Shown one piece after another: positions 27,978-56,968 of a stretch of DNA of 64,000 nt; position 1 is the stretch's first letter; each line of letters starts with the position of its first letter. Source of the stretch: Verrucomicrobiota bacterium (GTDB lineage: Bacteria > Verrucomicrobiota > Verrucomicrobiia > Limisphaerales > UBA11358); NCBI GenBank assembly GCA_049522015.1, contig JBEKOG010000026.1, positions 3,548 through 67,547 of the forward strand. Reading direction: 5' to 3'. A program made the position numbers and the translations under genes. The notes under the pieces were generated by a model. That model had not been told where the DNA came from. It saw nothing but the letters and a program-made list of their open reading frames with translations, and did not search any database.

Positions 27978-28009
27978 AAACAACAAAACAACACAAAGAG
28001 AAACATGGT

Positions 28010-32663: not shown

Positions 32664-34199
32664 TTACAACTTCGTATCTATCGGCTTGCTGATCGTCTCC
32701 ACGGGCGCCAGATCGAACTGGACTTTGATGGTGACGGTCTTGCCAGCCAGCTCTTTGGGCACTCGCCATGAGTGCGAACAAACGCCGCCTCAGCCAAACT
32801 CCATGTTGCCCGAAGCCACCTGTTTGCCATCGGCGGTATTGATCGCAAAGGCCGGCTTCGGCGGCTGGCGCAGGTTCCCTTTGTCTCCCTTGAGGAAAAA
32901 GCTTGAATACGTTTCGCCGCCGGCGCCGAGCACGGAAGCCTGGATGAACTGCTGCAACACCGGTTCGGCCCCGGCGTTCCCCCCAAAAACCCAGTCCAGA
33001 AACGATCCGGATTCCGACGCGGTCGAACCACTGTTCCGGTTGTCACGCGCCGACGTGACCTTGACTTCGAGGGGCGCGCCGCACTTGAACGGCGTGGCGG
33101 CGTCAGCCCGTGCCATGGTGGTGTCCTTCGGAGTGCGTTTGTATCCACTGAGAATCAAAGTTTCGCCGGCCGCGTTTTTGACTTTGAGCGTGCAGGTGTA
33201 AAGCCGGTAATTGCCGGACGGCACTTTGGCTTTTCCGTTTTCAACGCCGGGCTGAAGCAGTTGCCATTCGCCGGGTGCGGCTTCCCACGCCACCTGGAGG
33301 CCGTTCACCTGTTCGCCATGCGGTTGCAACGCCAGTTCCGCCAGCGGCCCGGCCCACGGTTCAAGCGCGAGCGATTTGTCGTCGGCCGCCAGAACGGCCT
33401 GGTAGGGTTTCGCACCCAGATACAGCACCGGTCCAAACGGGGCCGATACGCTGCTCCCGATGGAATTTTCGAATTTGCCGGAGCCATCGTTGCCCACGAG
33501 AAAATAATCACCGCCTTGGAAATACCAGTTGGTTTCGGTGCCATTCTGGTAGGTGGTCGGTTGATTGAAATCTCCCAGCCGGAAGTTGCAGTTTCCATCA
33601 ACGATGCCCACTTTCTGCGTCACGCCGTCCAAGTCCACCGTGGTTTCCAGGTACCAGCCCGCCTTGAACCGCAACTGGCCGAGGTAGGAAGTGTTCCTGT
33701 TCGCAACGGCATCTGCGGGCGGCGTGTAGAGATACATCTGGGCAAAATAAATCGGCCGCCACGTGCCAATCATTTTTCCCTCCGGCACCGGGATTGGCCC
33801 AAAGAGTGCGATCTCCGTCCGGTCCGCCGCGGACGTTTGCCTGGGCTGCTCCACCCGCGCGGCCACGGGGTCGTCCGTCAGATCGCCGTTTTGGTTCAGG
33901 TCCACAATCAAACGATCGTAACCCTTGCCATCACCCTTGGATTCATCAATCCGGAACCACAACCGGTTTGTCGAGACGGACATTTGGCCGTAAAGCGGAT
34001 GTTTGGAAATTGCCGGAGGCGCCTTGGTGATGGCGCCGGGTTTGTCGAGCTGCAAGGTTCCGTACAGGCCCGAGCCGCCGGGGAAGGCCATGGCTTCCTC
34101 GGCGTTCAAGGTCTTGAATTCCAGCGGAAAGTCTTTCGCGGGCGCAAGGACTGGGATTGCCAGGAGAACCAGACTCCAAACAAGCATCGTTTTTTTCAT
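32664..34199 (-). CDS. Secreted selenoprotein candidate, paralog A (TGA at 32790-32792 read as Sec)
   Basis: The listed ORF 32790-34199 has the signal peptide MKKTMLVWSLVLLAIPVLAPA and ends ..GNMEFG-TGA. The frame continues GGVCSHSWRVPKELAGKTVTIKVQFDLAPVETISKPIDTKL to a TAA at 32664. The motif and the hairpin are shared with four paralogs. Confidence 0.7.
32759..32792 (-). promoter_or_regulatory. Putative SECIS element, paralog A (UGA plus hairpin)
   Basis: The RNA reads UGA-N14-GCACUC-AUGGC-GAGUGC. Confidence 0.65.
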
Positions 34200-36517
34200 A
34201 ACTGTTCCTGTTCCTTTCGCTGCAATATAGGCTTTTGAGGTTCCAAGTGAAGGAGATTCTTGAGTCGCTCACGGAACAATGGGTTGATCCAAGACAGGAC
34301 CAGGAACGGCAGCAGCGTCGCGAAAATGAGCACCACCATGAACGGCCCGATCCGGAGGAATACGGCGTAATCCACGCTGCCGGGCGAGGCCATCCGGCAC
34401 AAAAAATGGAGCAGCGCCGACGCCGCAACCCAGGCTGTCGGCAGGGACAAGAAAAGCCACAGGCAGAACCACCACGGACGATGGCGCCACCGACAGGCCA
34501 GCCCGGACAAAGCCATGGCCGCAGCGACCACCAAGGCCAGCAGCACCGGCAGAACGAGAAACGGCAACGCCATCTCTCCCACGCCGGCGGTGTCCGTACA
34601 GCGTCGCGGGTCTAAAAGGCTCATGACTGGCTCCACCACCAGACCCCAGCCGGCGGTGGCCGCAAAACTGAAAACGATGAAAATGACCAGGACGGCCAAT
34701 GTGCCCAGGAAAGTGCGGAAGCGATAGCCGCGGCCAAGGTAGGAGGCCAGCAACCAGAGCGCGGCCAACCCAAACGCCAGAGCAACAGGAACGGCCAAAA
34801 TAATTTCGAGCATCCCCTTGGGCAGGCCGGTATTTGAGCTTTGCAATGCCAGTTCCAGACAATGCCACCCGGCCGCCAGACCCGCCAAGGGCAGCCAGAT
34901 CCACCACGCGGACCAGCCGTGATTGGGTTTGAGCGCCAGCAAAGCCAGGATAGCCAGCCACGGCAGCAACGGCGACATCAGGCCCGCTGCCGTCCAATTA
35001 CAAGTGACCACCGGACCTTCCGTGGCACCCAAGCCGCCCAAACCCCGCGAAGCAGCGATTTGGAGTTGGCCAGCCGTCGTCGAGGGTACTCGCCATGAGT
35101 ACGAGCAGAAGCCGTCTCAGCCAAATTCAAACTGGCCCGACCCGATCTGTTTCCCCGACCTGCCAACGGTAAATTGCGGCGGCTTCCAGTCGCTCCCTCT
35201 CACCAGCCAGTATTCTCCACCGCCGGCGCCGATCAATCGGTAGCTGAGAAGCAGGTTCCGTCCGCGGCGGGCGGCGGAGACGCAATTGGTCAACGGCCCG
35301 CCCACGGCCAACACTGCCGGTCGCTGCTCATCCACCACGACCGCCTGCTCCGGTGGCGGCGGACTCACCACCGGCAGTTGCGACCCGGTGATTTCCTCGA
35401 TCACATTCGCCTTCCCGGTTTGCGGCAGGCCGAAATTGAAGTAGGCCTCCGCCTCGCCCTGCTTGAGCCAGACGCGGTAGGGCTGGTATCGGCCGGGGGG
35501 GACCTTTACGCTGGCCGGGGGCTGGGTCAGGACGACCACATACGGCCCGCCCGTCAGGACGAGGCGCTGAATGAAACTGCCGGTGATTTGCAATTCGCCC
35601 AGCGGGGTTTGCTGTTCGGTCAACCGCAGCGCAAGTTTCTCGTCACGGCCTCGCGGCTCGGCGCTCCAGTCCAACTGGCAGGCGTGTCCCTCAAAAAAGA
35701 TCCCGGGCGAAAAGGCGAAGGCGTCCGACGCTCTCACCACCCAGTTCTTCCCTTCCCAGGGAATCGCCAATGTGTCCTCCGGTTTTTCGCTGGAGGCACT
35801 GAACCGTTTGTTTCGCTCCTCCCAGGGACGCAGCAACAATTGGCCGTGCTCGAAAGACCCCGGCTGGCCTGACAGGTTCTGCACCAATCCCACCTGCCAA
35901 TCATGTCCGGCCACGGTCACCTTGCCCTGCCAGAACGAACGTGCCATCACGTTGACCAGCGGTCGCCCGGAATCGCCGTACTGAAAGAAATCGAAATCCA
36001 CCAGCATGGGAGCGCCGGCTGACGTTGCCGGAAAAGAGAGGTGGATGTTCGTGAACACCTGATGATTGAGCGTTGGAAAACGCGGGCCCGTCAGGCTCCC
36101 GTAAAACACCCCGTTCGCATCATCGGTCAAATCCCGGTTGCGATTCAGATCGAGGAAGAGTTTTTTTGCGCCGGTTTGCCAGACGAAAGGAATGGCGTTG
36201 CTGGGGTTGTCGCCAAATTTCAACACCCCGCGAACGACATGACCGGGAGCCAGCGCCGGCTCTTTGGGGAACGGGACCGGTCGGCACTCGATGGAAATAT
36301 TCCGGAACAGAAACTGGTAGCTTGTCTCCTGATACTCCAGCGGAACCGTGGTCACCGTTCCGGATGGAGCAGTGGGCTGGGCGGAATCCTCGCTGCCCGA
36401 AACATTGCCCGGGCAAGACACCGCGATGACGGCCGCCGCCAGCAACGCGGCCCCTGGCCACGTCCAGCCTTTCCGCGGCAGCCAAAGCATCCTTCGCTTT
36501 CTCATAATGGCCGGCAT
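34196..36517 (-). CDS. Selenoprotein candidate, paralog B: exported domain - Sec - polytopic membrane domain (TGA at 35117-35119 read as Sec)
   Basis: The listed ORFs 35117-36517 (466 aa, ends ..GQFEFG-TGA) and 34196-35041 (281 aa, multi-TM) are in the same frame with no other stop between them. The bridge reads DGFCSYSWRVPSTTAGQLQIAASRG. The total is 773 codons. An ATGA overlap joins it to the start of paralog A (34196-34199). Confidence 0.6.
35086..35119 (-). promoter_or_regulatory. Putative SECIS element, paralog B
   Basis: The RNA reads UGA-N14-GUACUC-AUGGC-GAGUAC. Confidence 0.65.
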
Positions 36518-39133: not shown

Positions 39134-39142
39134 CTTCTCCTC

Positions 39143-41592: not shown

Positions 41593-43299
41593 ATGAAAAT
41601 TGATTTTGCCAGACGCCGGCGCGTGATGGAGCGGTCGCAATTGCTGGGGCACTGCATCTGCGACGTGCGGCGTCCCTGCCCGTGCGATGTTTTTCGTGAC
41701 GACGGGATTTGTCCGTGCGCCGGCGAGCGGCCCGACCCGGTGGACCTGTCACAGGTGAAACTGATGGAGCTGGTCCGCAACGCCGGTTGCGCGTCGAAGA
41801 TTGCCCCCGCCGAACTCGACGCAGTGCTGGGCCGGCTGCCCGCCGTAAATGATCCCGCCGTGATTTCCGGGCTGGCAGCGGGTGACGACGCGGCGATTTA
41901 CCGGATCTCCGACGACCTTTGCCTGGTGCAAACCGTGGACGTGTTCACGCCGTGTGTGGATGACCCGCATCTTTTCGGACGGATTTGCGCCGTGAACTGC
42001 CTTTCGGACATTTATGCGATGGGCGGCGAACCGCGCACCGCGTTGAGCATCCTGGCGTTTCCCACCGAGAAGTTACCGGGTGAGGTGATGTATCAAATGC
42101 TGGCCGGCGCGATGGATGTTTTTGAAGAGGCTGGCGTCGCGCTCGTCGGCGGGCACAGCGTCAAGGACGACGAAATCAAACTCGGCTTTGCCATCACCGG
42201 CCTGATCAATCCCAAAATTGCCGCCGCGCTGGAAAAACCGGGGGCCGGCGACGTGCTGGTGTTGACCAAGCCGCTGGGCACCGGCGTGCTGGCGTTCAGT
42301 CAGCAAATCGGGCGCGGGTATCCGGCCGGGCTGGCTGCCGCCGAAACTTCGATGGCCACGCTGAACAAGGCGGCGGCGGAGGCCATGAAGGAAGCCGGCG
42401 CCTCGGCCTGCACGGACGTGACGGGCTTCGGCCTGTTCGCGCATCTCCATCGCATGCTGCGCCAAAGCAAGCTGGGCGCGGAAATTTTCGCCGACGCGTT
42501 GCCGGCATTCGACGGCGCAGTTGAGGCCCTCCGGCAGGGCGTGATTCCGGGCGCAGTTGAACGAAACCGCGAATATGTCGGCGAGGCCATCCGCGTTGCG
42601 TCAAACGTGGACGAAGCGCTGGTCAACCTGGGTTTCGACGCGCAAACCTCCGGCGGCCTGCTGATTGCCGTTCCCCATGAACGGCTGGAGACTTTGCTTC
42701 AAGCCCTGGCCCGGCGTAGCGCCGGCAGTTTTGTCATTGGCAGAATCATTGGCACGTCTGATGAAAGAATCCTTGTAAATCGTGGCGCTCTTGAACCGAA
42801 CGTTCGGAGTTCCGCGTTTACGCGACCGCCTGAAGGCGGAACTCCAAACCCAAAAAGCAAATCCATGAAATCATCAACTTCAGATTCCACCGGCCAAGAA
42901 CCTTCCCTCACCCGCCCTTCCGCCTTCGCTGAAGCTACGGCGGACAAGCCGGGCACCCTCTCCCATCCGATGGGCGAGGGACACGGCTGCTGCGCGGACA
43001 TGTTCAAAGGCGAAGGCGCGGCAAGTTCCGTCGGCGAAACGCAAAAGGCTTTTGCCGCGATGATCCGCTCGGTGCAGGCCGCCGGCGTCTTGAGCGAAAA
43101 GGCCAAGGAACTGATCCTGTTCAGCCTGGTCGTGCACAGCCGGTGTCACCCGTGTTTCGACGCGCACTTTCGCAAGGCGCGCGAGATGGGCCTCACTCAG
43201 GCGGAATTGGACGAGGCGGCCTGGTGCGCCATCGCCATGGGTGGTGCGCCGGTAAAAATGTTTTATCAGGAGAGCCTCCGCCGGATTCAAAATGCGTAG
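41593..43299 (+). CDS. selD: Selenide, water dikinase (Cys form) with a Cys-rich N-terminal extension, fused to a C-terminal AhpD/CMD-like CxxC domain
   Basis: The SelD core carries 'NAGCASKIAP' (Cys at the Sec/Cys position), 'GDDAAIY', 'VQTVDVFTP', 'GGHSVKDDE' and 'VLTKPLGTG'. The N-terminal extension of about 55 aa reads HCICDVRRPCPCDVFRDDGICPC. After about residue 390 comes a repeat-encoded linker (..RPPEGGTPNPK.., ..LSHPMGEG..). Then '..LILFSLVVHSRCHPCFDAHFRKAREMGLTQAELDEAAWCAIAMGG' follows, an AhpD-like core. Confidence 0.85.
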   Translation: MKIDFARRRRVMERSQLLGHCICDVRRPCPCDVFRDDGICPCAGERPDPVDLSQVKLMELVRNAGCASKIAPAELDAVLGRLPAVNDPAVISGLAAGDDAAIYRISDDLCLVQTVDVFTPCVDDPHLFGRICAVNCLSDIYAMGGEPRTALSILAFPTEKLPGEVMYQMLAGAMDVFEEAGVALVGGHSVKDDEIKLGFAITGLINPKIAAALEKPGAGDVLVLTKPLGTGVLAFSQQIGRGYPAGLAAAETSMATLNKAAAEAMKEAGASACTDVTGFGLFAHLHRMLRQSKLGAEIFADALPAFDGAVEALRQGVIPGAVERNREYVGEAIRVASNVDEALVNLGFDAQTSGGLLIAVPHERLETLLQALARRSAGSFVIGRIIGTSDERILVNRGALEPNVRSSAFTRPPEGGTPNPKSKSMKSSTSDSTGQEPSLTRPSAFAEATADKPGTLSHPMGEGHGCCADMFKGEGAASSVGETQKAFAAMIRSVQAAGVLSEKAKELILFSLVVHSRCHPCFDAHFRKAREMGLTQAELDEAAWCAIAMGGAPVKMFYQESLRRIQNA

Positions 43300-43546: not shown

Positions 43547-45127
43547 ATGCCTGACAACGGCAACAACCGGTTTCTCCCAGGAACAACAAGACTTGCCTTG
43601 GTGCTGTTTGTCTGCGGGCTTGCCATCTTCTGTCTGGTTTTCCAAATCGGCAAGGGTCAAACCAGCAGCAACGGAACGTACAAACTGCGCGAAGTTTCGG
43701 TCTTCGAATCGGGCCAGAATAATTTTATTCGCGGGCAGATGTGTCGGTGCCAGGACAAACCCTTCCCGGAAGTGAAGAATTATCCCGCGTTCACCTCCGA
43801 GGTGCCGATTTTCGGTTCGGTCCGGTTCGGCGGGAGGCTGGACGAGACAAACTCCGGCTTGCTCTTTTATTTTGCCGTGGATGAAAGCCGCGGGACCGGC
43901 AAGGGCTTTGACCGCCTGTATTTCGACGCCAACCGGGACCTCGACCTGCGCAACGATCCGGTTGTCAAACTCCGGCAACCGCCGCCCGATCACGGCTATA
44001 AACCGAACTTCTCCGGCATCAAGGCGGTGGCGGCCTTCGATTTTTTGAAAGTCAACCTGGGCACCAACGGCGGCAGTTCCGACCTGGTGGAAATCATGCC
44101 GCGCCTGCTCCTCACGGGGGACGACAAACAAACCTACCGCTACCTGTTTTTCGTGCGCACCCGCCTTTTCGAAGGCGACATCCGGATGGCGGGCGAAAAA
44201 TTCCACGCCCAACTTGGGAATGATTATGTCATATCCCCCAGCTTTGATTTTCCCGGCACCGCCCTCGAGTTGAGCGGGAAGAAAACCTCCTTTAACTGGT
44301 GGGGCGGCGACCGGATATCGGCTATTCACAAAATGAACGGCCGCTTCTTCAGCTTTTCCGCCACCCAAGACGGCGAGTTGACCGTGCGTCCGTATTCTGG
44401 AGACCTGGGAACCTTTGAGATTGGACCGGGCACCCGGAAGCTGACCAACTTTGGCGTGTCGGGCTCGTTTGAAGCCCGGGATTGGGCCGTGCCGGTGGGC
44501 GGCGACATCAAAGACGGCCGGCCGGTCGAGGTCAGCCGTTGTCAGGTGCCGGTGGGCGACTACCTGCCGGAATTTCTCACGCTCCAATTCGGCCGGCTGC
44601 GAATTCAGCTTTCGCAAAACTACCATTCGGAAGGCAAACGCCAGAATCGTACCGGCCGCCCGGACGTTTACGGAATAACGATCCGCAAGGACCGGCCATA
44701 CGTGCTGGATTTCTCTAATCAGCCTGACGTGATGTTTACGTCACCGACCAACAGCCAGCGGGTCAAACCGGGCGACACCCTTATGGTGGCGGCCGTGCTG
44801 GTGGACCCGAAACTGGACATCATGATCCGCAGGCTGGATGACACATCGCACAAACAAACCAAGGATGCCGAGGGCAAGCCTCTGCATTATGAACAAAACC
44901 TGTCGCTTGACCCCAAAGTGATCATCATGCGGGCCAACGGCGAGAAAGTGGCTGAGGGCGTCATGCCCTTTGGCTGAGACGGCACGTGCGGGTACTCATG
45001 GCGGGTACCAAACGATCTCAAACTGGACGGCAAGGAAGAAACCTTCACCGTGCAGGTGCTTTACGACACGCTTGAGCTTTACGGAAAGGTCAGCGCCAAC
45101 CGGTCCGTTACTGTCTATCGCGAATAA
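43547..45127 (+). CDS. Secreted selenoprotein candidate, paralog C (TGA at 44975-44977 read as Sec)
   Basis: The listed ORF 43547-44977 has an N-terminal TM/signal anchor and ends ..GVMPFG-TGA. The frame continues DGTCGYSWRVPNDLKLDGKEETFTVQVLYDTLELYGKVSANRSVTVYRE to a TAA at 45125-45127. It lies directly downstream of selD on the same strand. Confidence 0.7.
44975..45008 (+). promoter_or_regulatory. Putative SECIS element, paralog C
   Basis: The RNA reads UGA-N14-GUACUC-AUGGC-GGGUAC, with one U-G wobble pair. Confidence 0.65.
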
Positions 45128-45146: not shown

Positions 45147-46037
45147 TCATGCCGGGTTTTCCGGTGCCTGCTGTGAATCCTTTTTCGGCAGGGCAAAGCA
45201 CGGCTCGATTGCGCCGCAGGTGGTGCATTCGAGACAGCGGATGCAGCCGGACACGTTGACGGCCTGATCCACTTTCACGCCCATCGAACAACGGCTGCGG
45301 CAGAGGTTGCATTCCACACATTCCTTGGGATTGAACCGGAGATGAAACAGGCTGAACCGGTTGAAGAGTGAGAGAAAGCCGCCCAGCGGACAAAAGATGC
45401 GGCACCACGGGCGATGAATGAACAAAGCGGCGGCGATGAACGACAGGAGTATCCCCGTTTTGAACCAGCTCATGACCCAACCTTTGCCGGCCAAAACACT
45501 TTGGACCGAATAAGGCACGCCGGCTTCGAGCGCGCCGGCCGGACAAAGGCGGCAGATGGAAACGGCCTGACGCTCGAACGGAATGCCCTTGAAGCCGAGA
45601 ACCATCGGCAGCAGCAGGACCAATCCCACCAGCACGACGTATCGCGTGTAGCCCACCCAGCCCGGCAAAGAAATTTTCCGGGGGGAAATTTTACCCAGCA
45701 AATCCTGCAGGAAACCGAACGGGCACGCCCAGCCGCATACGAGTGAGCCGCTCACCGCACCGACGAGCAGGAGCAAACCCATCAATAAATACGGGACTTC
45801 CCCGACCACCGGCAGCAGCGCGGCGTAATTTGCCGCCACGCCCACCGGACAGGCGAACGCGGACAACGGGCAGGAGTAGCAGTGGAACACACATCCGGGA
45901 ATGCCGTGCAGCCAACGGCCCACCGGCGCGAGCCAGATGCCAAGAAAGCCCGTCTGCAACCAGGGACGAAGGCGCGACAGCTTCCGGCCGAGGGCAGTCG
46001 GTTCACGTTGCTGGCAATTGGGTACAGGACATTCCAT
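45147..46037 (-). CDS. Membrane-bound 4Fe-4S polyferredoxin (NapH/MauN-like)
   Basis: It has multiple TM segments with CPxG motifs (CYSCPLSAFACPVG, CGWACPFG, CRLCPAG, CRIFCPLG). The C-terminal ferredoxin motifs are CVECNLCRSRC and CIRCLECTTC. Confidence 0.75.
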   Translation of the reverse strand: MECPVPNCQQREPTALGRKLSRLRPWLQTGFLGIWLAPVGRWLHGIPGCVFHCYSCPLSAFACPVGVAANYAALLPVVGEVPYLLMGLLLLVGAVSGSLVCGWACPFGFLQDLLGKISPRKISLPGWVGYTRYVVLVGLVLLLPMVLGFKGIPFERQAVSICRLCPAGALEAGVPYSVQSVLAGKGWVMSWFKTGILLSFIAAALFIHRPWCRIFCPLGGFLSLFNRFSLFHLRFNPKECVECNLCRSRCSMGVKVDQAVNVSGCIRCLECTTCGAIEPCFALPKKDSQQAPENPA

Positions 46038-46554: not shown

Positions 46555-46651
46555 TGGCGGAGGCGGATGGGAATCGAACCCACCTGGGACTTTGTTGAGC
46601 CCCACACTGGTTTTGAAGACCAGGAGCGCCACCAGGTCGCCTTACACCTCC
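46555..46651 (-). tRNA. selC: tRNA-Sec (anticodon UCA)
   Basis: The reverse complement reads GGAGGTGTAAGGCGACCTGGTGGCGCTCCTGGTCTTCAAAACCAGTGTGGGGCTCAACAAAGTCCCAGGTGGGTTCGATTCCCATCCGCCTCCGCCA. It is 97 nt long, with the anticodon loop CT-TCA-AA, a long variable arm (GGGGCT..AGTCCC), the T-loop GGTTCGATTCC, an extended acceptor stem, discriminator G and CCA. Confidence 0.9.
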
Positions 46652-47014: not shown

Positions 47015-50000
47015 TCACTGCGGCAATTTCTTGATCTGCACATCCAGTTCGTCGAGCGAAAAACCTTCCGCGATTACACGATGATTGGCGTCGGTGAGGA
47101 TCAACCACGGCAATGCGGGAACGGCCGAGGCCCATTTTGATTTTTCGGATTTCTCCGTCACCCGCCCGACCGGGAATAATACCGGACTGGCGGTTTTCCA
47201 TTCATTGAAAGTTTCATCGCTGGTGACTGCGGCTTGAACACCCAGCACCATAACGCCTTTCTGCCGGAGTGCGGCGGCCTGTTCATTCAACTGGTGGACC
47301 ACATGCCGCGACGGGCGCTGGCTCGCGTCGAACAGGCACACCAACACCGGCTTGCCGGCGGGCGCGGTGTCGCTGGCGAGATTCACCGTTACCAAATCGG
47401 GCAGCGGACTGCCTTTGAGCGAGGCGCGATGCGGTGTCTGGGGCATATTCCCCGGCTGGGAATTCAAGGTCATCACGACGTTGGTGTCGCCCGCTTCGAC
47501 CGTAGCCTGCGCGTTGCCACCGCCGTTTTGCGAATAGGCAAACAGGCGGATTTGTCCCTCGCAAATCTGGAAATGAAAACGACCCTGACTGTCGGTGGTC
47601 ATGTAACCCTCCGGCTGGTCTTCGCCGCTTAATTGCACGTTCGCGCCGGACGCCGGTTTGTCGTCATCTTTCAACACCTTTCCGGCGATGACGCGGTCGG
47701 CGAGCTTGAGGACGAACGGTGACAGTTCCATGCGATTTGTTTCGGAGTCGTTTTGGATTTGCTGCTGGCTTCGACCGTGGCCTTTGGCGGTGGCGAAAAC
47801 AGTGTATTGCGCGTCCGGCGGCAGGCATTTGATTTCGTAGCGGCCTTGCTCATCGGCGGCAGCCATTTGTTCATTCAATTGTTCGTAGCTGTTGCCCGCC
47901 CTGAGCCACACGCCGACCTGCGCGCCGGCGAGGGGAGACCCGTCAACGAATTTTACCAGCCCGGCCAGGGTCAGGGCCGGTTTCAATTTCACGTCGAGGT
48001 TCGTGGTTTCCTCCGGCAACTCTTCGGTGGCTCCCAAGTTGCGAACCGGGTCACGGACAACCAGCAGTGCGCCGCCCGACTGCATTTGCCACGGCTGGAG
48101 CGACCAGGTGAGGCTGAACGCGCCGTTGGTTGCGGTCTTTGTCCAGCGCCGCGAACCGTTGGACGGAAATACCGCCACCTGCGCGCCGTCGGCGGGTTTG
48201 CCATCGGCATCCGTCACCATGCCTTTGAGTTTGTGCGCCGCGGAACCGGGGGAGCTGTTGTAAGTTTGACCGAGCCGCAGAACGACATTCGTGTCGCCGC
48301 CTTCGGCTGAAATGTTGCCGAAGGAACGCTGGCTGTTGGCGGAGATTTGAGCCGGGCCTTCGCAGACATGCTCGAAGCGGAATCGTCCCTCGCGATCCGT
48401 CCGCACATTGCCGCCGGGCTGTCCGTCACCGTTAAGATTCACGTAGGTGCCCGCGACCGGCTTGTCGTCGGCGTCGAGCACCTGGCCGGCGAGTTTGAGA
48501 TTCGCTGGCTTGAGTTCCATGGGATCAAGTTCCTGACGGATGGCATCGGCGGAGATGTCGAGATTTTGCATCTGCCGCTGCCCGTAACCCGGCGCGGAGA
48601 CGATGACGCCATATTTTCTGCCGGGCGGCAGCGCGGGAATTTCATACTGTCCCGGCGTGTTGGTGCGGGCCAGACCTTGAAGCCACGAACCGCTGCGGCC
48701 GGTCCAGAAAACGAGCGAGGCGGTCGCGTTGGTGACCGGTTTGCCGTCGGATTCCGCCCGGCCGGCCAGCGTCAGTCCCGGCGCGAGTTTCAAATCGAGC
48801 GGGCCGGTGTCTTCGTCAATGTCCTGCGCCACGGCCAGATTGTGTTCCACGTCCCGAACCAGAATGCAGGCGGTTGTGTCGTTTTGTCCGAATCGGCGCT
48901 GGTTCCATTCCAACTCAAATTTTCCGCCGGCATCGGTCTTGACTTCGGCGTCCCCGGGACCAAAACCACCCACAATTCTCACCGGCAGTCCCGCCGCCGG
49001 CTGGCCGTCCGGCTGGCGGATAATGCCGGTGATTTTCTGCGGCGCGGCGATTTCAATCTCCACTCGGTTCGTCTTGCCGGCTTCCACGCTGGCGGAAGTC
49101 TGGTTGGCAGGCATGGATTCACGGGACGCCATCACCTGATAATCACCGGGCGGCAGCCTCAGGAGGGCGACGCCGTTGCTATCGGAACGGGCGGCGGATT
49201 GAAAGTTTTCCCGGTAAGCATTAACCATGACTTGCGCCAGCAGTTTGTGGTCGTTCTTTCCGAGCACGGCCACTTCCAGCAAACCGCCGCGCGCCGCAGC
49301 CACCTGCACGCCGCGCGTGGTTTGTCCGGATTCAACCGAAACTGGAATCGCGTCCGCGACCCATTCCGGAACAGCGTTGGTGCCGAAGACGGCCTGAATA
49401 CGGTAGGAACCTGCGGGCACGTCGCTGATGCGGAACGCGCCGTCCACGCCGGATTGCGCCGGCTCGCGTTCGCCAAACGCGAAAAAACCCGGGTTGTCTG
49501 GCTGCAACATCAACCGCGCGACGGGCGGCGGTTGATTGCTTTCCGCAACGATGATTTTACCTTCGACGCTGCCGGCGGATTCCACGACCAATTTGATGTC
49601 GTCCTGGCCCGCGCGCCAGGGCAGCGAATCGAAACCGGCAAATTCCTGCGATGATGGGCGCAGAGCTTTTCCCGGCGCCTGAACCGCAAGTGCGGCGGTG
49701 GCATTGGTCGGAAAATTTTCGATGCGGAAACGGCCGGCGGCGTCCGTCCGAGCGGCAAAACAATCGTGCGCGGGTTTGCCAAGGAAATAATTAAGACTCC
49801 GCTCTCCGCCTTCCCGCGAAATTTCGCAGAAGGCCGTGGCCACGGAAACCTCGGCGTTGGCGACAGGTTTGTCCGCTTCGTCCACCACCATGCCCGCCAG
49901 CACCGCCGGCGGAGTCAGCACCAGACGTTCTTCCCCGTCACGGACGGAATTAAACGGCTGGCCCAACTGTTTCCATGCCGGGGCCAGTCCCGGCTTTTTC

Positions 50001-50326
50001 GCCAGCAGAAATCCCATCGCCCGCGGCACTTGAAATTCAAAAGTGCCGTTGGTGCCCGTGGTGATTTGTTTTTTCAGTTCCAGATGATCCGTCAGGAACA
50101 GCCTTCCCTCGTAGCGCCAATACTCCACCGTCGCGCCGGCAAGGGGGCTGCCGGCGGTGTCGGTGATCGTCCCGGAACAGTTGAGTTCTTGCGCGCCGGC
50201 ATTGGTGCCGGTGTCCGGCGCTCTTTGAATAATGGCCTGCAGCCGTTGCTGCGTTTGGGCGAGCACGCCAAAGCTCGCAAACACAGAAACGGCAGAAACC
50301 AGAAGGAATTGCCGTGTCATTTTCAT
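47015..50326 (-). CDS. Secreted protein with multiple carboxypeptidase-regulatory-like domains and a C-terminal thioredoxin-fold (TlpA-like, no CxxC) domain
   Basis: The 1103-aa ORF has a signal peptide. It carries about 10 repeats of the 'G.V.D..GKP..GA.V' type. The C-terminus 'GKPVLVCLFDASQRPSRHVVHQLNEQAAALRQKGVMVLGVQ...PWLILTDANHRVIAEG' looks like a redoxin fold in which the CxxC is replaced. It lies 12 nt downstream of paralog D. Confidence 0.65.
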   Translation of the reverse strand: MKMTRQFLLVSAVSVFASFGVLAQTQQRLQAIIQRAPDTGTNAGAQELNCSGTITDTAGSPLAGATVEYWRYEGRLFLTDHLELKKQITTGTNGTFEFQVPRAMGFLLAKKPGLAPAWKQLGQPFNSVRDGEERLVLTPPAVLAGMVVDEADKPVANAEVSVATAFCEISREGGERSLNYFLGKPAHDCFAARTDAAGRFRIENFPTNATAALAVQAPGKALRPSSQEFAGFDSLPWRAGQDDIKLVVESAGSVEGKIIVAESNQPPPVARLMLQPDNPGFFAFGEREPAQSGVDGAFRISDVPAGSYRIQAVFGTNAVPEWVADAIPVSVESGQTTRGVQVAAARGGLLEVAVLGKNDHKLLAQVMVNAYRENFQSAARSDSNGVALLRLPPGDYQVMASRESMPANQTSASVEAGKTNRVEIEIAAPQKITGIIRQPDGQPAAGLPVRIVGGFGPGDAEVKTDAGGKFELEWNQRRFGQNDTTACILVRDVEHNLAVAQDIDEDTGPLDLKLAPGLTLAGRAESDGKPVTNATASLVFWTGRSGSWLQGLARTNTPGQYEIPALPPGRKYGVIVSAPGYGQRQMQNLDISADAIRQELDPMELKPANLKLAGQVLDADDKPVAGTYVNLNGDGQPGGNVRTDREGRFRFEHVCEGPAQISANSQRSFGNISAEGGDTNVVLRLGQTYNSSPGSAAHKLKGMVTDADGKPADGAQVAVFPSNGSRRWTKTATNGAFSLTWSLQPWQMQSGGALLVVRDPVRNLGATEELPEETTNLDVKLKPALTLAGLVKFVDGSPLAGAQVGVWLRAGNSYEQLNEQMAAADEQGRYEIKCLPPDAQYTVFATAKGHGRSQQQIQNDSETNRMELSPFVLKLADRVIAGKVLKDDDKPASGANVQLSGEDQPEGYMTTDSQGRFHFQICEGQIRLFAYSQNGGGNAQATVEAGDTNVVMTLNSQPGNMPQTPHRASLKGSPLPDLVTVNLASDTAPAGKPVLVCLFDASQRPSRHVVHQLNEQAAALRQKGVMVLGVQAAVTSDETFNEWKTASPVLFPVGRVTEKSEKSKWASAVPALPWLILTDANHRVIAEGFSLDELDVQIKKLPQ

Positions 50327-50337
50327 GGGATGTTTAA

Positions 50338-51615
50338 TTATTTTTTTGCTTCAAGCGTCAACGGACTCGTCAGCACCTGGAACGGGCTGAAAATTTTGAT
50401 GTTGCCAACCAACGGACGCTGAACATTTTTGGGCTCCCGCCATGAGAGCGAACAAACGCCGCCTCACCCAAACTCGAACGTGTTCGTATAACACAACGTC
50501 CCGTCGGCATTGGCCAGCATCAATTTCGGCCCGCGCGGGCGCTGCCCGTCACGCAGCATCTCGATGGATTCCTTCTGTTGCCCCACGAAACTGAGGTTGA
50601 AGGCGACCTGGCGGTTGGGGTTCTCGGTCGCCTTGAGCACGGCTTGCACCGGCTCGCCGATTTCCAGCACGGCAGTTTTGTCGGCAGCGACCTCGAACCC
50701 GGCGGTTTTGGGGAAATTATAGCCGGACAGCGTCCACGCCGCGCCTTTTTCATCCTTGCGATTGATCGTCCAGCGAAAGATCCGGTAATTGCCCGCCGGC
50801 AGGGTGAATTCGCCGTTCACCGGCTGGCGCACGAAATGGCCGTTCCCGCCGAACGCGGCGAATTCGGAAATGTTTTCCGGCACGCGCACCTGGCCGAGCG
50901 TGATCCCGCCGGGCGGGACCTTTTGCACCTTGACGAACGCGCCGTCGCGGGCGGCTTCGATCCGGAAAAGCTTTCCGTCCACTTCCAGCATTTTGCCCAA
51001 AAAACGTTCGCCGGTCTTGTCGCCCTCGACCTGGACGCGGTCGCTGTCATAAGGATCCGGTGCGACGTCGTTAAACGTGCCGTTGACGTTGCCGTCAATC
51101 AGTTGGATGCGTTTTTTCACGCCGTCGAAATTCACCACGCCTTCATACCAGCCGGCGGACGATGCCAGCAATTGCGCGGGACTCTTTTCGTATTGATAGA
51201 ACCGGAACACGAGATGATAGGTGATCGGCCCGTCCTCGCCCTTGAAAACAACGGGGGCCGGCGGAAAAAAGGCGAAGTAGGAATCCAGTCGCGCCTGGAT
51301 GGGCGTTTTGTCGTCCAGCCGGCCATTGCCGTTGCTGTCAATGTACAGCCGGTCATACGGCCCGGACTTGCGTGTGCGGTCGAAGCAGAGCCAGCGGCCG
51401 CCGGCGGGGTCCATCGGCGTGGACCAGCGCGCGAAATAGGGCGGCGCGTTCAGCTTGGGCAGGGCGACGCCGGGTGGCGGATTGGTGGTCAGTTCCATCT
51501 GGTGGTAGGCGCGGCCCTCGGCGCTGGTATGGTATTCCAGCCACTGCTCGGTTTGCGCGAACGCGGTGCCGGCGAGAACCATTCCGGCCAGAATCAATTT
51601 TCTGGAAAGTTTCAT
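50338..51615 (-). CDS. Secreted selenoprotein candidate, paralog D (TGA at 50464-50466 read as Sec)
   Basis: The listed ORF 50464-51615 has the signal peptide MKLSRKLILAGMVLAGTAFA and ends ..NTFEFG-TGA. The frame continues GGVCSLSWREPKNVQRPLVGNIKIFSPFQVLTSPLTLEAKK to a TAA at 50338-50340. Confidence 0.7.
50433..50466 (-). promoter_or_regulatory. Putative SECIS element, paralog D
   Basis: The RNA reads UGA-N14-GCUCUC-AUGGC-GGGAGC. Confidence 0.65.
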
Positions 51616-51646
51616 GATGTTAAGGTTGGCTTTTTGTTCATCAAGT

Positions 51647-53749
51647 TCAAGCTTTCAATTGGTCGTCGGGCAAAGGCGCATTCAGTGGCGGCGGGGCCTC
51701 CGGTTTCACGTGCAGCAACGCCTTGAGCCGTTCGCGGAAAAGTGAGTTGGCGGAAGACAGAACCAGGAACGGGAACAGCGTGACGAACCCGGCTGCCGTC
51801 AGAACCAAAACCACGACGAAGAATTCCTGCCACGGCAACCGACCACCCGAAACAATCATTGCGAAGGCAAAGACCGGTGTGAGAATCACCAGCCAAAGCG
51901 CCAGCAGTGACAGGAAGATCCAGAGGTACAGCCCCAAGGGACGATAGCGACCCCGGCAGGCCAGCCCGGCTAAAAAGATGGCCAGCGCAACCACAAGAAC
52001 GCTGAGGGCCAGCGGAACCAGCATCACCAATACCAGGGAGGCCCCGTCCACGGTCCAATCCTGTCTGACCAAAAAACTGAAAAGGCTGAAGCCCGCCAAG
52101 GTGGGCGCGAGGCACAGGAAAGTGACGAGCCGATGGCTGCGCGCCAGTTGGTGCGCCAGCAGCCAGACGGCGGCAACGCCAAAGGCCAGCGAACCCGCCA
52201 TCTCAAGAAACATGTCTGCCGTGCCCGAGGGCAGAAATTCAAAGGCTGACTGCGACAATTGTTCCATGGCCGCCACACATCCGAGGGGCAGCCAGATCCA
52301 CCATGCCCGGCCGCAACGGTTTGGCTTGGTCAATAACAGCAGCAAAACCGCCAGCCACGGCAGAAATGAAGGGATGAGACTGGGGACCGTCCAATGGTAA
52401 CTGACCGGATCGCCTTCCTTCGCACCGAGGCCTCCGAGATCGGAAACGGCCACGATCTTCAGTTCACCGGCGGACGTGAGAGGCACTCGCCATGAGTGCG
52501 AACAGGTGCCGCCTCAGCCAAATTCGAATTTGCCCGACACGATTTTCCTGTCGCCCTTGTACACCGCGAACTCCGGCGGCTGGGAGCGATTTTGATTTGC
52601 CAGTTGGTAGGTTTCGCCGCCCGCACCAACCAGTCGGTAATCAAGGCGCAAATCCCGCCCGTGACGGCTGGCAGTGACGGAATTGGTCAACGGCCCGCCC
52701 GCGTCCAACACCGCCGGGGTCTTGTCATCCACGGAAATCCGCCAGCCAACTAGCGTTAGGCCGGGATTGCAGAAGGCCTCGGCGCCATTTTGTTCCAGCA
52801 GGATGTCGGGTCGGTTGTAGCTGCCGGTCGGGACTTTTACGCTGGCTGCCGGTTGATCGAGCACCACGAGATACGGTCCGCCCGACAAGACAAGCCGTTG
52901 AATAAATTTGCCGGCGATTTTCAATTCGCCAAGCGGGACGGTTTGTTCCGTGAATTGGAGGGCGGGCTTCGCTTCGCCGTCCTGCGGTCTGGCCACCAGG
53001 TCCAGTTGATAGGCGTGGCCGTCAACAAAAAGTTTCCGTGAAAAGGGAACGGTGACGAGCGAACCATCGTAGGTGTTGAATGACTGGTTTCGTTTTTCCC
53101 AGGGACGCAGCAGCAACCGGCCGTTCTCGAACGAACCCGATTGGTTCAAGCCATTTTGGACGATGCCCACCTGCCAGTCCTGTCCTTGCAACGTCACCTT
53201 GCCCTGCCAGAACGAGCGCAACGCGAGGTTGCAACTCGGTCGCGGAAGGTTGTCATAGAAGGTGATGTCCGCCAGCACCTGGCATTTGCCGGATGCGGTG
53301 TTGAAAAGCAGGTGGATGTTCGTGAACGTCTGATAATAAACCGTCCTCGCTGTGCGCGCCAAAAAAACGCCGGAGGGATCGTCGGTCAAATCCTGGTTGT
53401 GATTGAGGTCGAGGTAAAGTTTTCCGGCGGCTCGGTCCCAGGCAAAAGCGATTGAATTGCTGTCGCTGCCGCCGGGCTGGAAGGTGCCGCGCACAACTTT
53501 GTTCCCGGCGAACGCCGGTTCCTTTGTGAACGGGGTGGATCGATTGACAACCGGGAGGCCGCAGTTAATTAAGCCATACCCGACCTCGCTATAATCGAGA
53601 TGGGCTGTTTGAATCTGTCCGGATTGAGAATTCGCGGCAGCCGTCGCTTCGCCGCCGGAGGCGGCATTGACCATGAAGCTCGCTCCGAAGAGAAACACAC
53701 CCAAAAAGACCACGCCTGACCGGATGATTTCTTTCAGCGCCGAACTCAT
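51647..53749 (-). CDS. Selenoprotein candidate, paralog E: exported domain - Sec - polytopic membrane domain (TGA at 52514-52516 read as Sec)
   Basis: The listed ORFs 52514-53824 (ends ..GKFEFG-TGA) and 51647-52486 (279 aa, multi-TM) are in frame, separated only by GGTCSHSWR. The likely start is 53749 (MSSALKEIIRSGVVFLGVFLFGASFMVNA), with alternatives at 53779 and 53824. It is about 50% identical by eye to paralog B in both domains. Confidence 0.6.
52483..52516 (-). promoter_or_regulatory. Putative SECIS element, paralog E
   Basis: The RNA reads UGA-N14-GCACUC-AUGGC-GAGUGC. Confidence 0.65.
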
Positions 53750-53837
53750 GGTTATCCAGTTTGTCGCCGTGATTGGCATTACAGCGGGTCGTGGCCTGTC
53801 AAGCAAGCAGATTCCTTCGCGCAAAAACGCGGCGCGT

Positions 53838-54329
53838 TCAGGCGCTGTCTGTTTGGAGTTCCGCGTCTACGCGGCTCGGGCGAACAGCAATGTTAACCCA
53901 TCGCACCCTTTCCCAATCCGGTACCCTGCCGGGAACGATCCGGAACAACGGATGCGGCGCGGGAATTTTTTTCGGCAAAAGATCGCGGTGTTTTTTTGGA
54001 TCGCGTTTTTTCAACTTCCGTTTCAAATGCCGCCACTCATAAAGCAACTGGCCGCGCGTTTCCTTCAATTTGCCGCGAATTCGCCGCGCGCCGATTTTGG
54101 ACGCGTCAAATTTATAACCGCGTTGCACAGCTTCTTCATGTACCGCCGCCAGATAACTCGCCAGTGCGGCGGGCGGATTGGCCAGTCCGGAAAAGCGGCG
54201 CAATTGCGGATGATGCTTGTACCCACGGGTCGCACCGAGCAAAACTTTTTGCGCCAGCAACGCTTCGCGCCAGAGCGCCACCAGCCCCCGGGCGTCCAGA
54301 TACTTCGGGTGCAGCGTCCACAAGCGCAT
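53838..54329 (-). CDS. Pyrimidine-dimer DNA glycosylase-like protein
   Basis: The start was set at 54329 ('MRLWTLHPKYLDARGLVALWREALLAQKVL..GYKHHPQL'), which is the characteristic N-terminus of this family from memory. The listed upstream extension is encoded by a repeat. Confidence 0.75.
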   Translation of the reverse strand: MRLWTLHPKYLDARGLVALWREALLAQKVLLGATRGYKHHPQLRRFSGLANPPAALASYLAAVHEEAVQRGYKFDASKIGARRIRGKLKETRGQLLYEWRHLKRKLKKRDPKKHRDLLPKKIPAPHPLFRIVPGRVPDWERVRWVNIAVRPSRVDAELQTDSA

Positions 54330-54615
54330 GGGGAATTTTTGGCAACTGCATTTTGGAAGTCGCGGTTGAAATACCCGCTTGCCCGCTTCGTCCTGAACTT
54401 CAGCATCCTGGGAGCGCTGGCGTCCCGCCGGCTTGTTGTATGACGGTGGCTGCTCCACTGGCCGGCGAGACGCCAGCGTTCCCAAGGCTTGCAGACTGTT
54501 CGGAGTTCCGCCTTCAGGCGGCTGGGTGGTGGTATTTACCTGAACCGCGTAAACGCGGAACTCCAAACGGTGCCAGAGTTAGAGACATCCGAAATCACTT
54601 CAAACGTTCCGTCAA

Positions 54616-56766
54616 ATGTGGCATCTAATCCCTGTGCGACGCATCGGAACCATTCTGGCAGGCTGGGTTTGCCTCGCGGCCCTCACCGCCAGCGCAGCCC
54701 ACACGCAGGCGCGGCTGATATTGTCCGCCGACACCGCGCGTCCCGGCGACACTGTGCTGGCCGGCGTGGATTTGAAAATGGAGCCGGGCTGGCACACCTA
54801 CTGGAAAAATCCCGGTGCTGCCGGCTACGCCACCAAAATCGAATGGCAATTGCCGCCCGGCGTCACCGCCGGCGAAATCCAATGGCCGCTCCCGGAAAAA
54901 TTGCCGCCGGTCGAAGTCACCACCTACGGTTACGACGACGAGGTTGTCCTGCTCGTGCCGCTCAAGCTCGCCGCCGATTTGAAGCCCGGCCCGCTCGATT
55001 TGAAGGCCAAGGTTTCCTGGCTCGAATGCAAGGCAGCCTGCATCCCCGGCAATGGCAACGTCGAAGCCACCCTCAACATCAGCGACCAAACCAAAGCGTC
55101 CGCCGACGCCGCGCTCATTGAATCGTGGAAAAGCAAGGTGCCGCAAACCAACGGCTTTTATCAATTTCAAGCATGGTGGGAAAACGTGACTAACGATGAC
55201 ACACGATCATTTATCATGAGCAACTGGCGGGGCGGCGCTGACAAAAATATAAAATTTGCCTCGGTAGATTTTTTTCCAAACACCAGCGACAACTTTGAAG
55301 TTCAAGCTGCGACGGAAATCATTTCCGCCTATTCCGCCGACATTTGCCTTCGCAAGGCTGTAAAAAAATTTTCCGGCGATTGGCCAAAGGAAATTTCTGG
55401 CGTGTTGGTTTTGCAAATGAGTAATTCGCGCGAGGGATTTGAAGTCAAAATGCCCGTCAGCGACCAAGCGCCCGCCGGTGAAACAATGTCCGCGCAATCG
55501 CCGCCGGAGAGTGGGACGGGCTTCCAGCCTGTCCAAGCAGGCAAGATGCCTGCCCCACTTTCACAGCCGCTCTGGAAAATGCTGCTCTACGCCTTCATCG
55601 GCGGATTGATTCTGAACATCATGCCGTGCGTGCTGCCGGTCATCGCGCTGAAAATTCTCGGCTTTGTCGGCGAATCCAGAAGTGACCCGCGGCACGTGCG
55701 CAAACTCGGCCTTGTTTACGCGCTCGGCGTGCTGGTGTCGTTTCTCGCGCTCGCAGCCATCGTCATCGGCGTCAAGGCTGCCGGGCACCGGGCCGGCTGG
55801 GGCATGCAGTTTGGCAGCCCGGTTTTTGTCGTTTGCCTCACCACGCTCGTCACGCTCGTGGCGCTGAATCTATTCGGCGTATTTGAAGTCACGCTTGGCG
55901 GACGCGCGCTCGACGCGGCGGGCGGACTGGCGTCGAAGCATGGCGCGGCGGGCGCATTTTTCAACGGCCTATTAACAACGGTGCTCGCTACATCTTGCAC
56001 TGCACCTGTTCTGGCCACGGCACTCGGCTTCGCATTCAGGGAGACAGCGCCGGTGATTCTGATGATGTTTCTCGCTGTCGGTGTCGGACTCGCCGCGCCG
56101 TACGTTGTGTTGAGCTGGAATCCGGCGTGGCTGAAATTTCTGCCCAAACCCGGCGCGTGGATGGAAAAATTCAAAATCGCCATGGGTTTCCCGATGCTGG
56201 CCACTGCTGTGTGGTTGTTCCTGCTGGCAGCCGGGAATTTCGACAAAAGCCGTACACTTTGGTTTGGATTGTTCCTCGTTGCCTTGGGCCTTGCGGCTTG
56301 GATTTGGGGCGAGTTCGTACAGAGAGGAACAAAATGCCGCGGACTGGCGAGGATCGTCAGTATTCTTCTTGCTGTTGGAATTGGAACTTATGCTTTTTGC
56401 CAGACACCGGATCAAATTGAGTGGCATTCGTGGAGCACCGCAGCGGTGGCCAAGGCACAAGCCGCAGGCCGGCCTGTGTTTGTGGATTTCACCGCAGACT
56501 GGTGCGTTAACTGCCAAGTCAACAAAAAGACCAGCATCGAAATCCCGTCCGTGCGCGCGAAGCTCAAGTCCATGAACGCCGTCGCCCTGCTCGGCGATTA
56601 CACGCGATTCCCCGACAATATCACGACCGAATTGAACCGCTTCAGCCGCGCCGGCGTGCCGCTGGTTTTGGTTTATCCCCGGGACCCCGCCGCGCCGCCA
56701 ATCGTCCTGCCCGAAATTCTGACACCGGGCATCGTGCTCGACGCCCTCGACCGCGCGGCGCGGTGA
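54616..56766 (+). CDS. dsbD: Thiol:disulfide interchange protein DsbD/ScsB family
   Basis: The N-terminal periplasmic domain carries 'GWHTYWKNPG..' and 'WLECKAACIPG'. The central TM core carries 'LNIMPCVLPVIALK', and the C-terminal thioredoxin domain carries 'DFTADWCVNCQ'. An in-frame hairpin pair lies at 55513-55556 (..GTGFQPVQAGKMPAP..). Confidence 0.85.
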   Translation: MWHLIPVRRIGTILAGWVCLAALTASAAHTQARLILSADTARPGDTVLAGVDLKMEPGWHTYWKNPGAAGYATKIEWQLPPGVTAGEIQWPLPEKLPPVEVTTYGYDDEVVLLVPLKLAADLKPGPLDLKAKVSWLECKAACIPGNGNVEATLNISDQTKASADAALIESWKSKVPQTNGFYQFQAWWENVTNDDTRSFIMSNWRGGADKNIKFASVDFFPNTSDNFEVQAATEIISAYSADICLRKAVKKFSGDWPKEISGVLVLQMSNSREGFEVKMPVSDQAPAGETMSAQSPPESGTGFQPVQAGKMPAPLSQPLWKMLLYAFIGGLILNIMPCVLPVIALKILGFVGESRSDPRHVRKLGLVYALGVLVSFLALAAIVIGVKAAGHRAGWGMQFGSPVFVVCLTTLVTLVALNLFGVFEVTLGGRALDAAGGLASKHGAAGAFFNGLLTTVLATSCTAPVLATALGFAFRETAPVILMMFLAVGVGLAAPYVVLSWNPAWLKFLPKPGAWMEKFKIAMGFPMLATAVWLFLLAAGNFDKSRTLWFGLFLVALGLAAWIWGEFVQRGTKCRGLARIVSILLAVGIGTYAFCQTPDQIEWHSWSTAAVAKAQAAGRPVFVDFTADWCVNCQVNKKTSIEIPSVRAKLKSMNAVALLGDYTRFPDNITTELNRFSRAGVPLVLVYPRDPAAPPIVLPEILTPGIVLDALDRAAR

Positions 56767-56968
56767 CGGATTGTATTTGTGGCACAGACGTCCACGTCTG
56801 TGACTCCAAAACACAGGCCAGAGGCCTGTGCCACCTTGTTTTGCCGGAGGTTTTGACACTGGGTATCGTGCTCGACGCCCTCGACCGCGCGGCGCGGTGA
56901 CGGATTGTATTGTGGCACAGGCGTCCACGCCTGTGAGCCCAAACACAGGCCGAAGGCCTGTGCCACTC
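56721..56968. repeat. Tandem duplication (period about 134 nt) of the dsbD 3' end plus two hairpin repeats
   Basis: Copy 1 begins at 56721 and copy 2 at 56855. Both contain ATCGTGCTCGACGCCCTCGACCGCGCGGCGCGGTGACGGATTGTAT, which is 46 nt, identical, and encodes ..IVLDALDRAAR-stop. Each is followed by the hairpins CACAG(A/G)CGTCCACG(T/C)CTGTG and CACAGGCC..GGCCTGTG. Confidence 0.75.

Follow-up and report, generated by a model that had tools for sequence, protein, structure and literature searches.

Organization of the locus

We analyzed a stretch of 64,000 nucleotides from a Verrucomicrobiota bacterium (GenBank assembly GCA_049522015.1, contig JBEKOG010000026.1, positions 3,548 to 67,547), hereafter called the window, and focused on three neighboring genes on its minus strand. 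The gene that we call E (51647..53749; ATG at 53749, stop at 51647) is predicted to encode a membrane-anchored selenoprotein with a signal or anchor peptide. It is followed by D (50338..51615; ATG at 51615, stop at 50338), which is predicted to encode a soluble exported selenoprotein with a signal peptide, and by a gene for a secreted protein of 1103 amino acids (47015..50326) that combines CarboxypepD_reg repeats with a C-terminal thioredoxin fold. Taken jointly, it is very probable that E and D are members of one selenoprotein family, that they belong to a conserved cassette and that this arrangement did not arise by block duplication. The gene coordinates and the order E, D, 1103-amino-acid gene that an earlier note on this DNA had described were reproduced from the open reading frames (ORFs). 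The gap between E and D is 31 nt. The gap between D and the next gene had been put at 12 nt, but is 11 nt (50327-50337, sequence TTAAACATCCC).

Evidence for selenocysteine in E and D

Both E and D contain an in-frame TGA codon. The TGA of E (52514..52516, minus strand) corresponds to residue 412, and in the read-through translation it is preceded by 411 and followed by 288 amino acids, all in frame. The TGA of D (50464..50466, minus strand) corresponds to residue 384, with 383 amino acids before it and a tail of 41 after it. Both codons lie within the sequence F-E-F-G-U-G-G-x-C-S-x-S-W-R-x-P, where U is selenocysteine (Sec). A six-frame scan of the window gave five such sites, in genes that we call A to E, sharing [F/P]G-U-[G/D]G-x-C-[S/G]-x-SWR-[V/E]P. 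The motif of the family around Sec is F-x-[FY]-G-U-G-G-x-C-x-x-S-W-R-x-P and that of the D-type subfamily is CSLSWREP. Among the matches to the motif pattern listed from elsewhere, all 142 are in-frame family members, well beyond what chance would give. The reading frame continues past the TGA in every one of them, with a domain of seven transmembrane (TM) helices there in 32 cases, and the tail also stays in frame in the D orthologs of loci L001 and L002.

A hairpin with a 6-bp stem and a 5-nt loop starts 15 nt after each UGA. In E it lies at 52483..52499 (minus strand, loop AUGGC) and in D at 50433..50449 (minus strand, stem GCUCUC/GGGAGC). The published criteria for a bacterial Sec insertion sequence (SECIS) are an upper stem of 4-16 bp, a loop of 3-9 nt, 16-37 nt separating the UGA from the loop and a minimum free energy of -7.5 kcal/mol or lower (PMC13188914). 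The hairpins of the window fit these values for stem, loop size, spacing and energy, with 20 nt from UGA to loop and minimum free energies of -12.9 to -20.2 kcal/mol per 48 nt. The Rfam library gave no match for the hairpin. Across 141 distinct family sequences the pairing is kept in 99.4% of alignment cells and four of the six pairs show compensatory changes; none of 500 shuffles reached the observed values. Part of the stem and loop had been fixed by the search pattern, which placed no constraint on the 3' arm or on most of the 5' arm. Because the stem covers the codons for x-S and for R-V, codons on its two arms are partners (CAC for His and GUG for Val, UAC for Tyr and GUA for Val, CUC for Leu and GAG for Glu), and in the D hairpin the codons for Leu and Glu make up for each other's changes. 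A synonymous third base thus tracks a non-synonymous first base, which is hard to explain without a constraint on the RNA.

The genes for making and inserting Sec are all inside the window. On the plus strand, selA (37246-38958), selB (38999-41098) and a selD gene fused to an AhpD/CMD domain (41593-43299; NCBIfam selD, 338 bits) were identified with Pfam and are located between genes B and C. The tRNA-Sec gene selC (46555..46651, minus strand), with anticodon UCA, was identified with ARAGORN and matches Rfam RF01852 with 71 bits; it begins 363 nt downstream of the 1103-amino-acid gene. Among the 120 loci from the pattern scan, 28 have selA, selB or selD within 8 kb of a family gene. A selD gene with a C-terminal AhpD/CMD domain also adjoins the cassette in L001.

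These data also bear on the public annotation, which treats the TGAs as ordinary stops and the parts upstream and downstream of them as separate genes. The database entries are all split in this way, into 'hypothetical proteins' of ~410 and ~275 amino acids, and there is a possible GTG start at 52486 for the TM half of E. This explanation is contradicted by the frame retained across the TGA in all of the listed matches, by tails of 41 to 50 amino acids that are conserved although they have no start codon of their own, by the covariation of the hairpin, by the genes of the Sec machinery lying alongside family genes, and by one database protein (P0390) that has Cys at precisely the TGA column. 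We therefore consider it hardly credible that the TGAs are ordinary stops. The earlier proposal that E and D are selenoproteins agrees with the motif, the frame, the covarying hairpin and the Sec machinery. In both genes the UGA is very probably read as Sec with the aid of the short hairpin that starts 15 nt further on.

Architecture of E, D and their paralogs

The five paralogs of the window are homologous along their length. B (34196..36517, minus strand, Sec TGA at 35119-35117) is a TM-type paralog of E. A (32664..34199, minus strand, Sec TGA at 32792-32790) is an A-type short paralog, and C (43547..45127, plus strand, Sec TGA at 44975-44977) is a C-type short paralog with the sequence MPFG-U. 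C belongs to a subfamily that is often found in tandem in Planctomycetota, for example in L027, L029, L044 and L049. The stop of B and the start of A overlap in the sequence ATGA, as had been described. B and E, which the earlier note regarded as co-linear paralogs in their exported as well as their membrane parts, align by BLASTP with 44% identity over 747 amino acids (E=3e-180), the identity ranging from 44 to 51%. The corresponding values for A and D are 25% over 464 amino acids (E=2e-23), and A with E and D with E gave E=2e-21 and E=2e-12, so that the proposed homology of A and D to each other and to B and E beyond the C-terminal motif holds for most of their length.

The two halves of E were modeled separately with AlphaFold2. 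The exported part (411 amino acids) is all-beta in the model, with a mean predicted local distance difference test (pLDDT) score of 83, and the TM domain (about 52375-51749, minus strand) has seven helices. In these models the Sec loop is predicted to sit between the last strands of the C-terminal beta-sandwich and the first strands after the UGA. Within the loop, Sec is four residues ahead of a conserved Cys (U-x-x-x-C). The basic loops of the TM domain alternate between the two sides, which fits the positive-inside rule with a cytoplasmic C-terminus; this is our own reading of the AlphaFold2 helices and the sequence, not a computed topology. Together with the signal peptides, this is consistent with E and D being exported. 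We considered whether the TM domain might be an electron conduit like those of DsbD and CcdA and rejected the idea, since it has a single conserved Cys (in 84% of sequences), which we read as being on the cytoplasmic face.

Relatives carry other modules after Sec. In D-type relatives the frame continues past Sec into F5/8-type-C and Laminin_G_3 domains, in some cases with a TM anchor. Such tails were confirmed with Pfam in L099 and L055, and L009, L023, L036 and L116 have tails of the same kind as judged by eye and by clustering. Multi-TM tails follow Sec in L004 and L034. The Sec domain is thus, as read from the sequences, combined with lectin-like or membrane modules in relatives.

A large family with very few Cys forms

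Neither Pfam nor NCBIfam release 20 gave a match for A to E, even at E = 0.1. In an exhaustive search of 1.84 billion representatives (clusters at 50% identity), a profile of the five exported parts found 3635 clusters at E<=1e-3, 1972 at 1e-10 and 461 at 1e-30. Of the 149 best new matches, 144 end in [FYLW]G, that is, at the glycine before the TGA. The exported half of E alone has 574 homologs in a collection clustered at 90%. The best 120 of these are 385-457 amino acids long and all but one of them end in F-x-[FY]-G, cut at the UGA; those that are named carry the label 'hypothetical protein'. The TM half of E has 356 homologs, always as separate ORFs of about 190-290 amino acids. Among GTDB species representatives, at least 120 contigs match the DNA pattern of the motif. 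By their record labels, the contigs listed comprise 90 from Planctomycetota, 16 from Verrucomicrobiota including Kiritimatiellia, and 14 others, which are from Sumerlaeota/BRC1, Hydrogenedentota, Riflebacteria, Acidobacteriota, Zixibacteria, Actinomycetes and Anaerolineales or are unclassified.

We found no family with the U-G-G-x-C motif or this fold in the selenoprotein-family tables of 2022 and 2026 (PMC9312934, PMC13188914). In the table of 2026, a Pfam, NCBIfam or CDD model stands behind each family (PMC13188914), and BSepDB, with 111 families and subfamilies, was built from previously reported families (PMC13326102). The GUxG family named 'hypothetical protein DG' (NF049953) was considered and rejected, as there was no NCBIfam match. 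Within the literature and libraries searched, the family is apparently undescribed.

Cys forms of the family were sought with a profile that spans the motif and has C at the U column. In 5.8 billion sequences, from which 191 candidates were scored by a word-based method, there was one true Cys form, P0390; one further ORF (P0392) has Gly at this column. A relaxed DNA pattern for Cys forms had 77 matches among 241 million metagenome records, none of them in the family. Nearly all selenoproteins are far outnumbered by their Cys homologs (PMC13188914). This family looks like an exception that is almost Sec-obligate, to judge from these sequence searches, and the near absence of Cys forms may explain why it was overlooked by searches that pair Sec with Cys homologs. 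A motif variant in L108 and L111 reads U-G-F-T-C.

The 1103-amino-acid stalk protein

The protein encoded downstream of D has a signal peptide and about 10 CarboxypepD_reg repeats (PF13620, E=2e-74, 10 stretches). Its last 135 residues (about 47422-47018, minus strand) gave a weak hint of a thioredoxin fold when searched as a single sequence (AhpC-TSA, E 0.005; 2lrt, E 0.095). When the window was combined with 16 loci of both phyla, the resulting 19-sequence profile matched ResA (4nmu, E=3e-6) as well as other ResA and TlpA entries. In the profile alignment, the sequence QRPS (47320-47309, minus strand) takes the CxxC position, with Q opposite the first and S opposite the second Cys of the CKPC of ResA. 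Across the 19 sequences of this alignment Q never changes, and R, P and S each differ in a single sequence. This bears out the earlier description of a TlpA-like fold without CxxC. By sequence, the domain appears to have the TlpA/ResA fold and, lacking CxxC, not to be an active member of that family; that it is a redox-inactive binding module is a fair inference.

Conservation of the cassette and its neighbors

The proteins of the window served as queries against the ORFs of every locus retrieved. The order of E, its TM part, D and the CarboxypepD_reg protein recurs in Verrucomicrobiota (L001, L002/L020, L086, L099), in two metagenome-assembled genomes (L056, L100) and in Planctomycetota of the Sedimentisphaerales (L006), Pirellulales (L023) and Phycisphaerae (L112). 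Nine further loci have D followed by the CarboxypepD_reg protein. The tight, co-oriented unit of E, D and the 1103-amino-acid gene, which the earlier note had pointed out, is therefore found in two phyla. No terminator-like site was found in the gap between E and D or in the one after D, and the sites called by the promoter and terminator scan were no commoner than in shuffled sequence.

A gene for a membrane polyferredoxin resembling NapH and NosR (45147..46037, minus strand; Fer4_5, Pfam PF12801), with four CxxCP and two ferredoxin motifs, is part of the same neighborhood. In at least 10 loci the Fer4_5 gene adjoins an E-type gene, and the number rises to at least 12 when loci in which it adjoins tRNA-Sec are counted too. 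It is next to tRNA-Sec in the window and in L001, L002, L030, L060, L077, L100 and L111, which suggests that tRNA-Sec and the NapH-like gene have been inherited together in the window and in the loci labeled as verrucomicrobial or Planctomycetaceae. In L001, L002, L086 and L100 tRNA-Sec is downstream of the CarboxypepD_reg gene, and the Fer4_5 gene lies beyond it in L001, L002 and L100; the L086 locus ends about 300 bp past tRNA-Sec. The protein from the window scored 42-44 bits against NCBIfam models of NapH and NosR that have cut-offs of 213 to 1000, and only the Pfam Fer4_5 model was passed. The cassette is old, older than the divergence between the family's verrucomicrobial and planctomycete members, and consists not of two genes but of three or four.

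On the other side of E, in its upstream flank, there is a DsbD gene on the opposite strand (54616..56766, plus strand; Pfam DsbD_N, DsbD_TM and Thioredoxin_7), with a Pyr_excise gene (53838..54566, minus strand) between the two. DsbD occupies the same position in L002. The last ~60 nt of the window's dsbD and a downstream hairpin are duplicated in tandem (56708-56966), with a period of ~133 nt and 88-91% identity between copies. Farther away on the plus strand are genes for a double-cubane-cluster reductase (25326-26627), an ArsM/DVU_1556-like methyltransferase (27947-28816), two further double-cubane-like ORFs (28958-29932 and 29686-31314) and an acyl-CoA dehydratase activase (31311-32096). 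At least 12 other loci have genes of these kinds beside family genes and selAB, as judged by eye from cluster representatives.

Phylogeny of the long and short genes

The window has two pairs of a long membrane-anchored and a short soluble selenoprotein gene, B with A and E with D, and the earlier note had proposed that this unit was duplicated as a block. In both pairs the long gene precedes the short one on the same strand with tight spacing, A and D are the mutual best non-self BLAST match among the short paralogs, and two Planctomycetaceae loci (L108 and L111) also have a long gene together with a short A-like partner. We constructed a neighbor-joining tree from 88 members with complete exported parts, using 432 columns and 100 bootstraps. 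Its clades are the TM-type (bootstrap 99), D-type (97), C-type (100) and A-type (100), the last of which was seen only in Verrucomicrobiota, along with a planctomycete short-type group. Within the TM-type clade, B nests among the verrucomicrobial genes, as does E (bootstrap 97). D falls with the D-type genes of Planctomycetota, to which it is 42-43% identical, to the exclusion of A (25% identical; bootstrap 97). A and D were sisters in two of 100 replicates, and A was never joined to the verrucomicrobial D genes.

E and D occur as linked genes in both phyla and so have parallel histories. B, by contrast, branches after the phyla split and A before it, a pattern that a single block duplication cannot give. 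Synteny also contradicts the proposal. In L051 the nearest relative of A directly abuts selA, without a B-like gene between them, and the B-A adjacency with the ATGA overlap was seen only in L003, a close relative in which A is 81% identical. A block duplication that gave rise to both pairs is, in our judgment, very unlikely. B arose later, as a copy of an E-type gene, and was inserted between an older, separate A-type gene and selA; the ancient module is E-D-CarboxypepD_reg, not a two-gene unit. Together, these data indicate that the locus is less a duplicated module than a well-preserved example of a large, unannotated selenoprotein family and its cassette.

Possible function at the cell envelope

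Our best guess for the function of the cassette, which we offer tentatively, is an extracytoplasmic selenol/thiol redox relay. Electrons would enter via the polyferredoxin or via DsbD, whose gene flanks E upstream both in the window and in L002, and would pass to the Sec/Cys loop of membrane-bound E, which is tethered by its own seven-helix domain. From E they would go on to soluble D, and the cysteine-free thioredoxin fold of the stalk protein may act as a docking or substrate-holding module. We favor a redox relay because the context provides both an electron source, in the form of the polyferredoxin or DsbD, and a cysteine-free thioredoxin fold.

There are several points that weigh against this. 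To our knowledge, U-x-x-x-C is not a known redox motif. One homolog lacks Sec altogether and lies inside an ORF of 1537 amino acids (L097, 1752-6362, plus strand), and another (L013, 5606-7621, minus strand) retains U without the Cys partner (GGSLSATWRG). The TM part of E was modeled with moderate confidence (pLDDT 69), and Foldseek searches of the PDB gave no convincing relative for the exported part (best E 0.08, TM-score at most 0.12) or the TM part (best E 1.2). DsbD adjoins the cassette in some loci only, and we infer co-transcription of E, D and the 1103-amino-acid gene from the gaps of 31 and 11 nt and the conserved order alone. As for Sec decoding, the SECIS consensus wants a G at loop position 1 or 2 (PMC13188914), and all five loops in the window are AUGGC, with no G in these positions. 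A GUGGC loop, which fits the consensus, is present in 105 of the 141 family sequences (75%).

Two other functions were considered. The Sec/Cys loop could be a soft-metal or metalloid ligand that binds or hands over Cu(I), Hg, As, Se or Te species in the periplasm, with the stalk protein and the lectin-like domains positioning the ligand protein at the cell envelope. An obligatory selenolate ligand would suit the fact that Sec is almost never swapped for Cys, and the glycine-rich nature of the loop was also counted in favor of a metal ligand. The ArsM-like methyltransferase, the double-cubane reductases and the activase share the island and recur in other loci, as noted above, and many predicted contacts of Sec in proteins involve metals (PMC13188914). 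On the other hand, there is no conserved cluster of His, Cys or Met around the Sec loop and no gene for a metal transporter or chaperone in the conserved cassette, and the polyferredoxin and DsbD point to electron supply. We regard a metal-binding role as unlikely. A structural role appears more doubtful still. Here, intra- or intermolecular selenylsulfide links would fasten E, D and the stalk into an envelope structure typical of Planctomycetota and Verrucomicrobiota, without catalytic turnover. The all-beta, multi-domain build, the stalk with its 10 CarboxypepD_reg repeats, the lectin-like domains and TM anchors of some relatives, the many paralogs per genome and the failure of Foldseek to detect an enzyme fold are all consistent with this. 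However, the use of costly Sec machinery for a purely structural bond would be unprecedented, the tight linkage to the polyferredoxin suggests electron flow, and the relative in L013 has no Cys with which U could pair. The redox relay thus remains the function that we favor.

The occurrence of the family beside selA, selB, selC and selD in many genomes suggests that it is a main reason why these lineages keep the Sec trait. It is conceivable, though we would not yet bet on it, that a very large and essentially Sec-obligate family, missed by inventories for want of Cys homologs and a known domain, is what maintains the Sec machinery and at the same time forms a new redox machine of the envelope. 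If so, this family, rather than formate dehydrogenase, would maintain the Sec machinery in many Planctomycetota, Verrucomicrobiota and neighboring phyla, and the polyferredoxin, the anchored and soluble selenoproteins and the stalk would make up a selenium-dependent envelope redox machine of a new kind. The discovery of bacterial selenoproteins leans on Cys homologs and known domains, and a family with neither and with thousands of members is a blind spot. Public annotation splits or truncates every member that we examined, so that the true proteins, including fusions of the exported domain to the 7-TM domain, are absent from the protein databases searched. That Sec is hardly ever exchanged for Cys points to chemistry beyond that of sulfur, and makes the family a test case for why selenium is used.

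Comparison with known systems

The selenoproteins most like E and D are those related to DsbA, DsbG and TlpA/Prx, which are likewise exported, have Sec near Cys and have a hairpin just after the UGA. As proposed for the E/D family, these periplasmic thiol:disulfide selenoproteins are likely to be supplied with electrons across the membrane. They differ from E and D in having a thioredoxin fold, a UxxC or UGC motif and abundant Cys homologs, whereas E and D have a predicted beta-sandwich, U-x-x-x-C and scarce Cys forms. No Pfam or NCBIfam model of those families matches the E/D proteins.

The multi-selenoprotein operons SAO and Tso, the latter with three selenoproteins, also contain clustered selenoprotein genes with membrane and redox partners (PMC13188914). 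The DsbD of the window is partly similar to TsoB (NF045694, 121 bits versus a cut-off of 805), and no Sao or Tso model was matched above its cut-off. The SAO and Tso operons combine unrelated selenoprotein families, whereas the genes described here are paralogs of a single new family in Planctomycetota and Verrucomicrobiota.

The polyferredoxin resembles NapH, NosR and MauN, which likewise have CxxCP motifs plus two 4Fe-4S motifs in a membrane protein encoded beside its presumed exported partner. For NapH and NosR this partner is nitrate or nitrous oxide reductase, whereas here it is a selenoprotein, and the scores are far below the cut-offs for those families. Lastly, the b' domain of protein disulfide isomerase is a redox-inactive domain with a thioredoxin fold. 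The C-terminal domain of the stalk protein, which has no CxxC, would resemble it in keeping the cis-Pro loop, a feature that suggests binding over catalysis. It differs from the b' domain in that QRPS itself is conserved across phyla and in its place at the end of a stalk made up of CarboxypepD_reg repeats.

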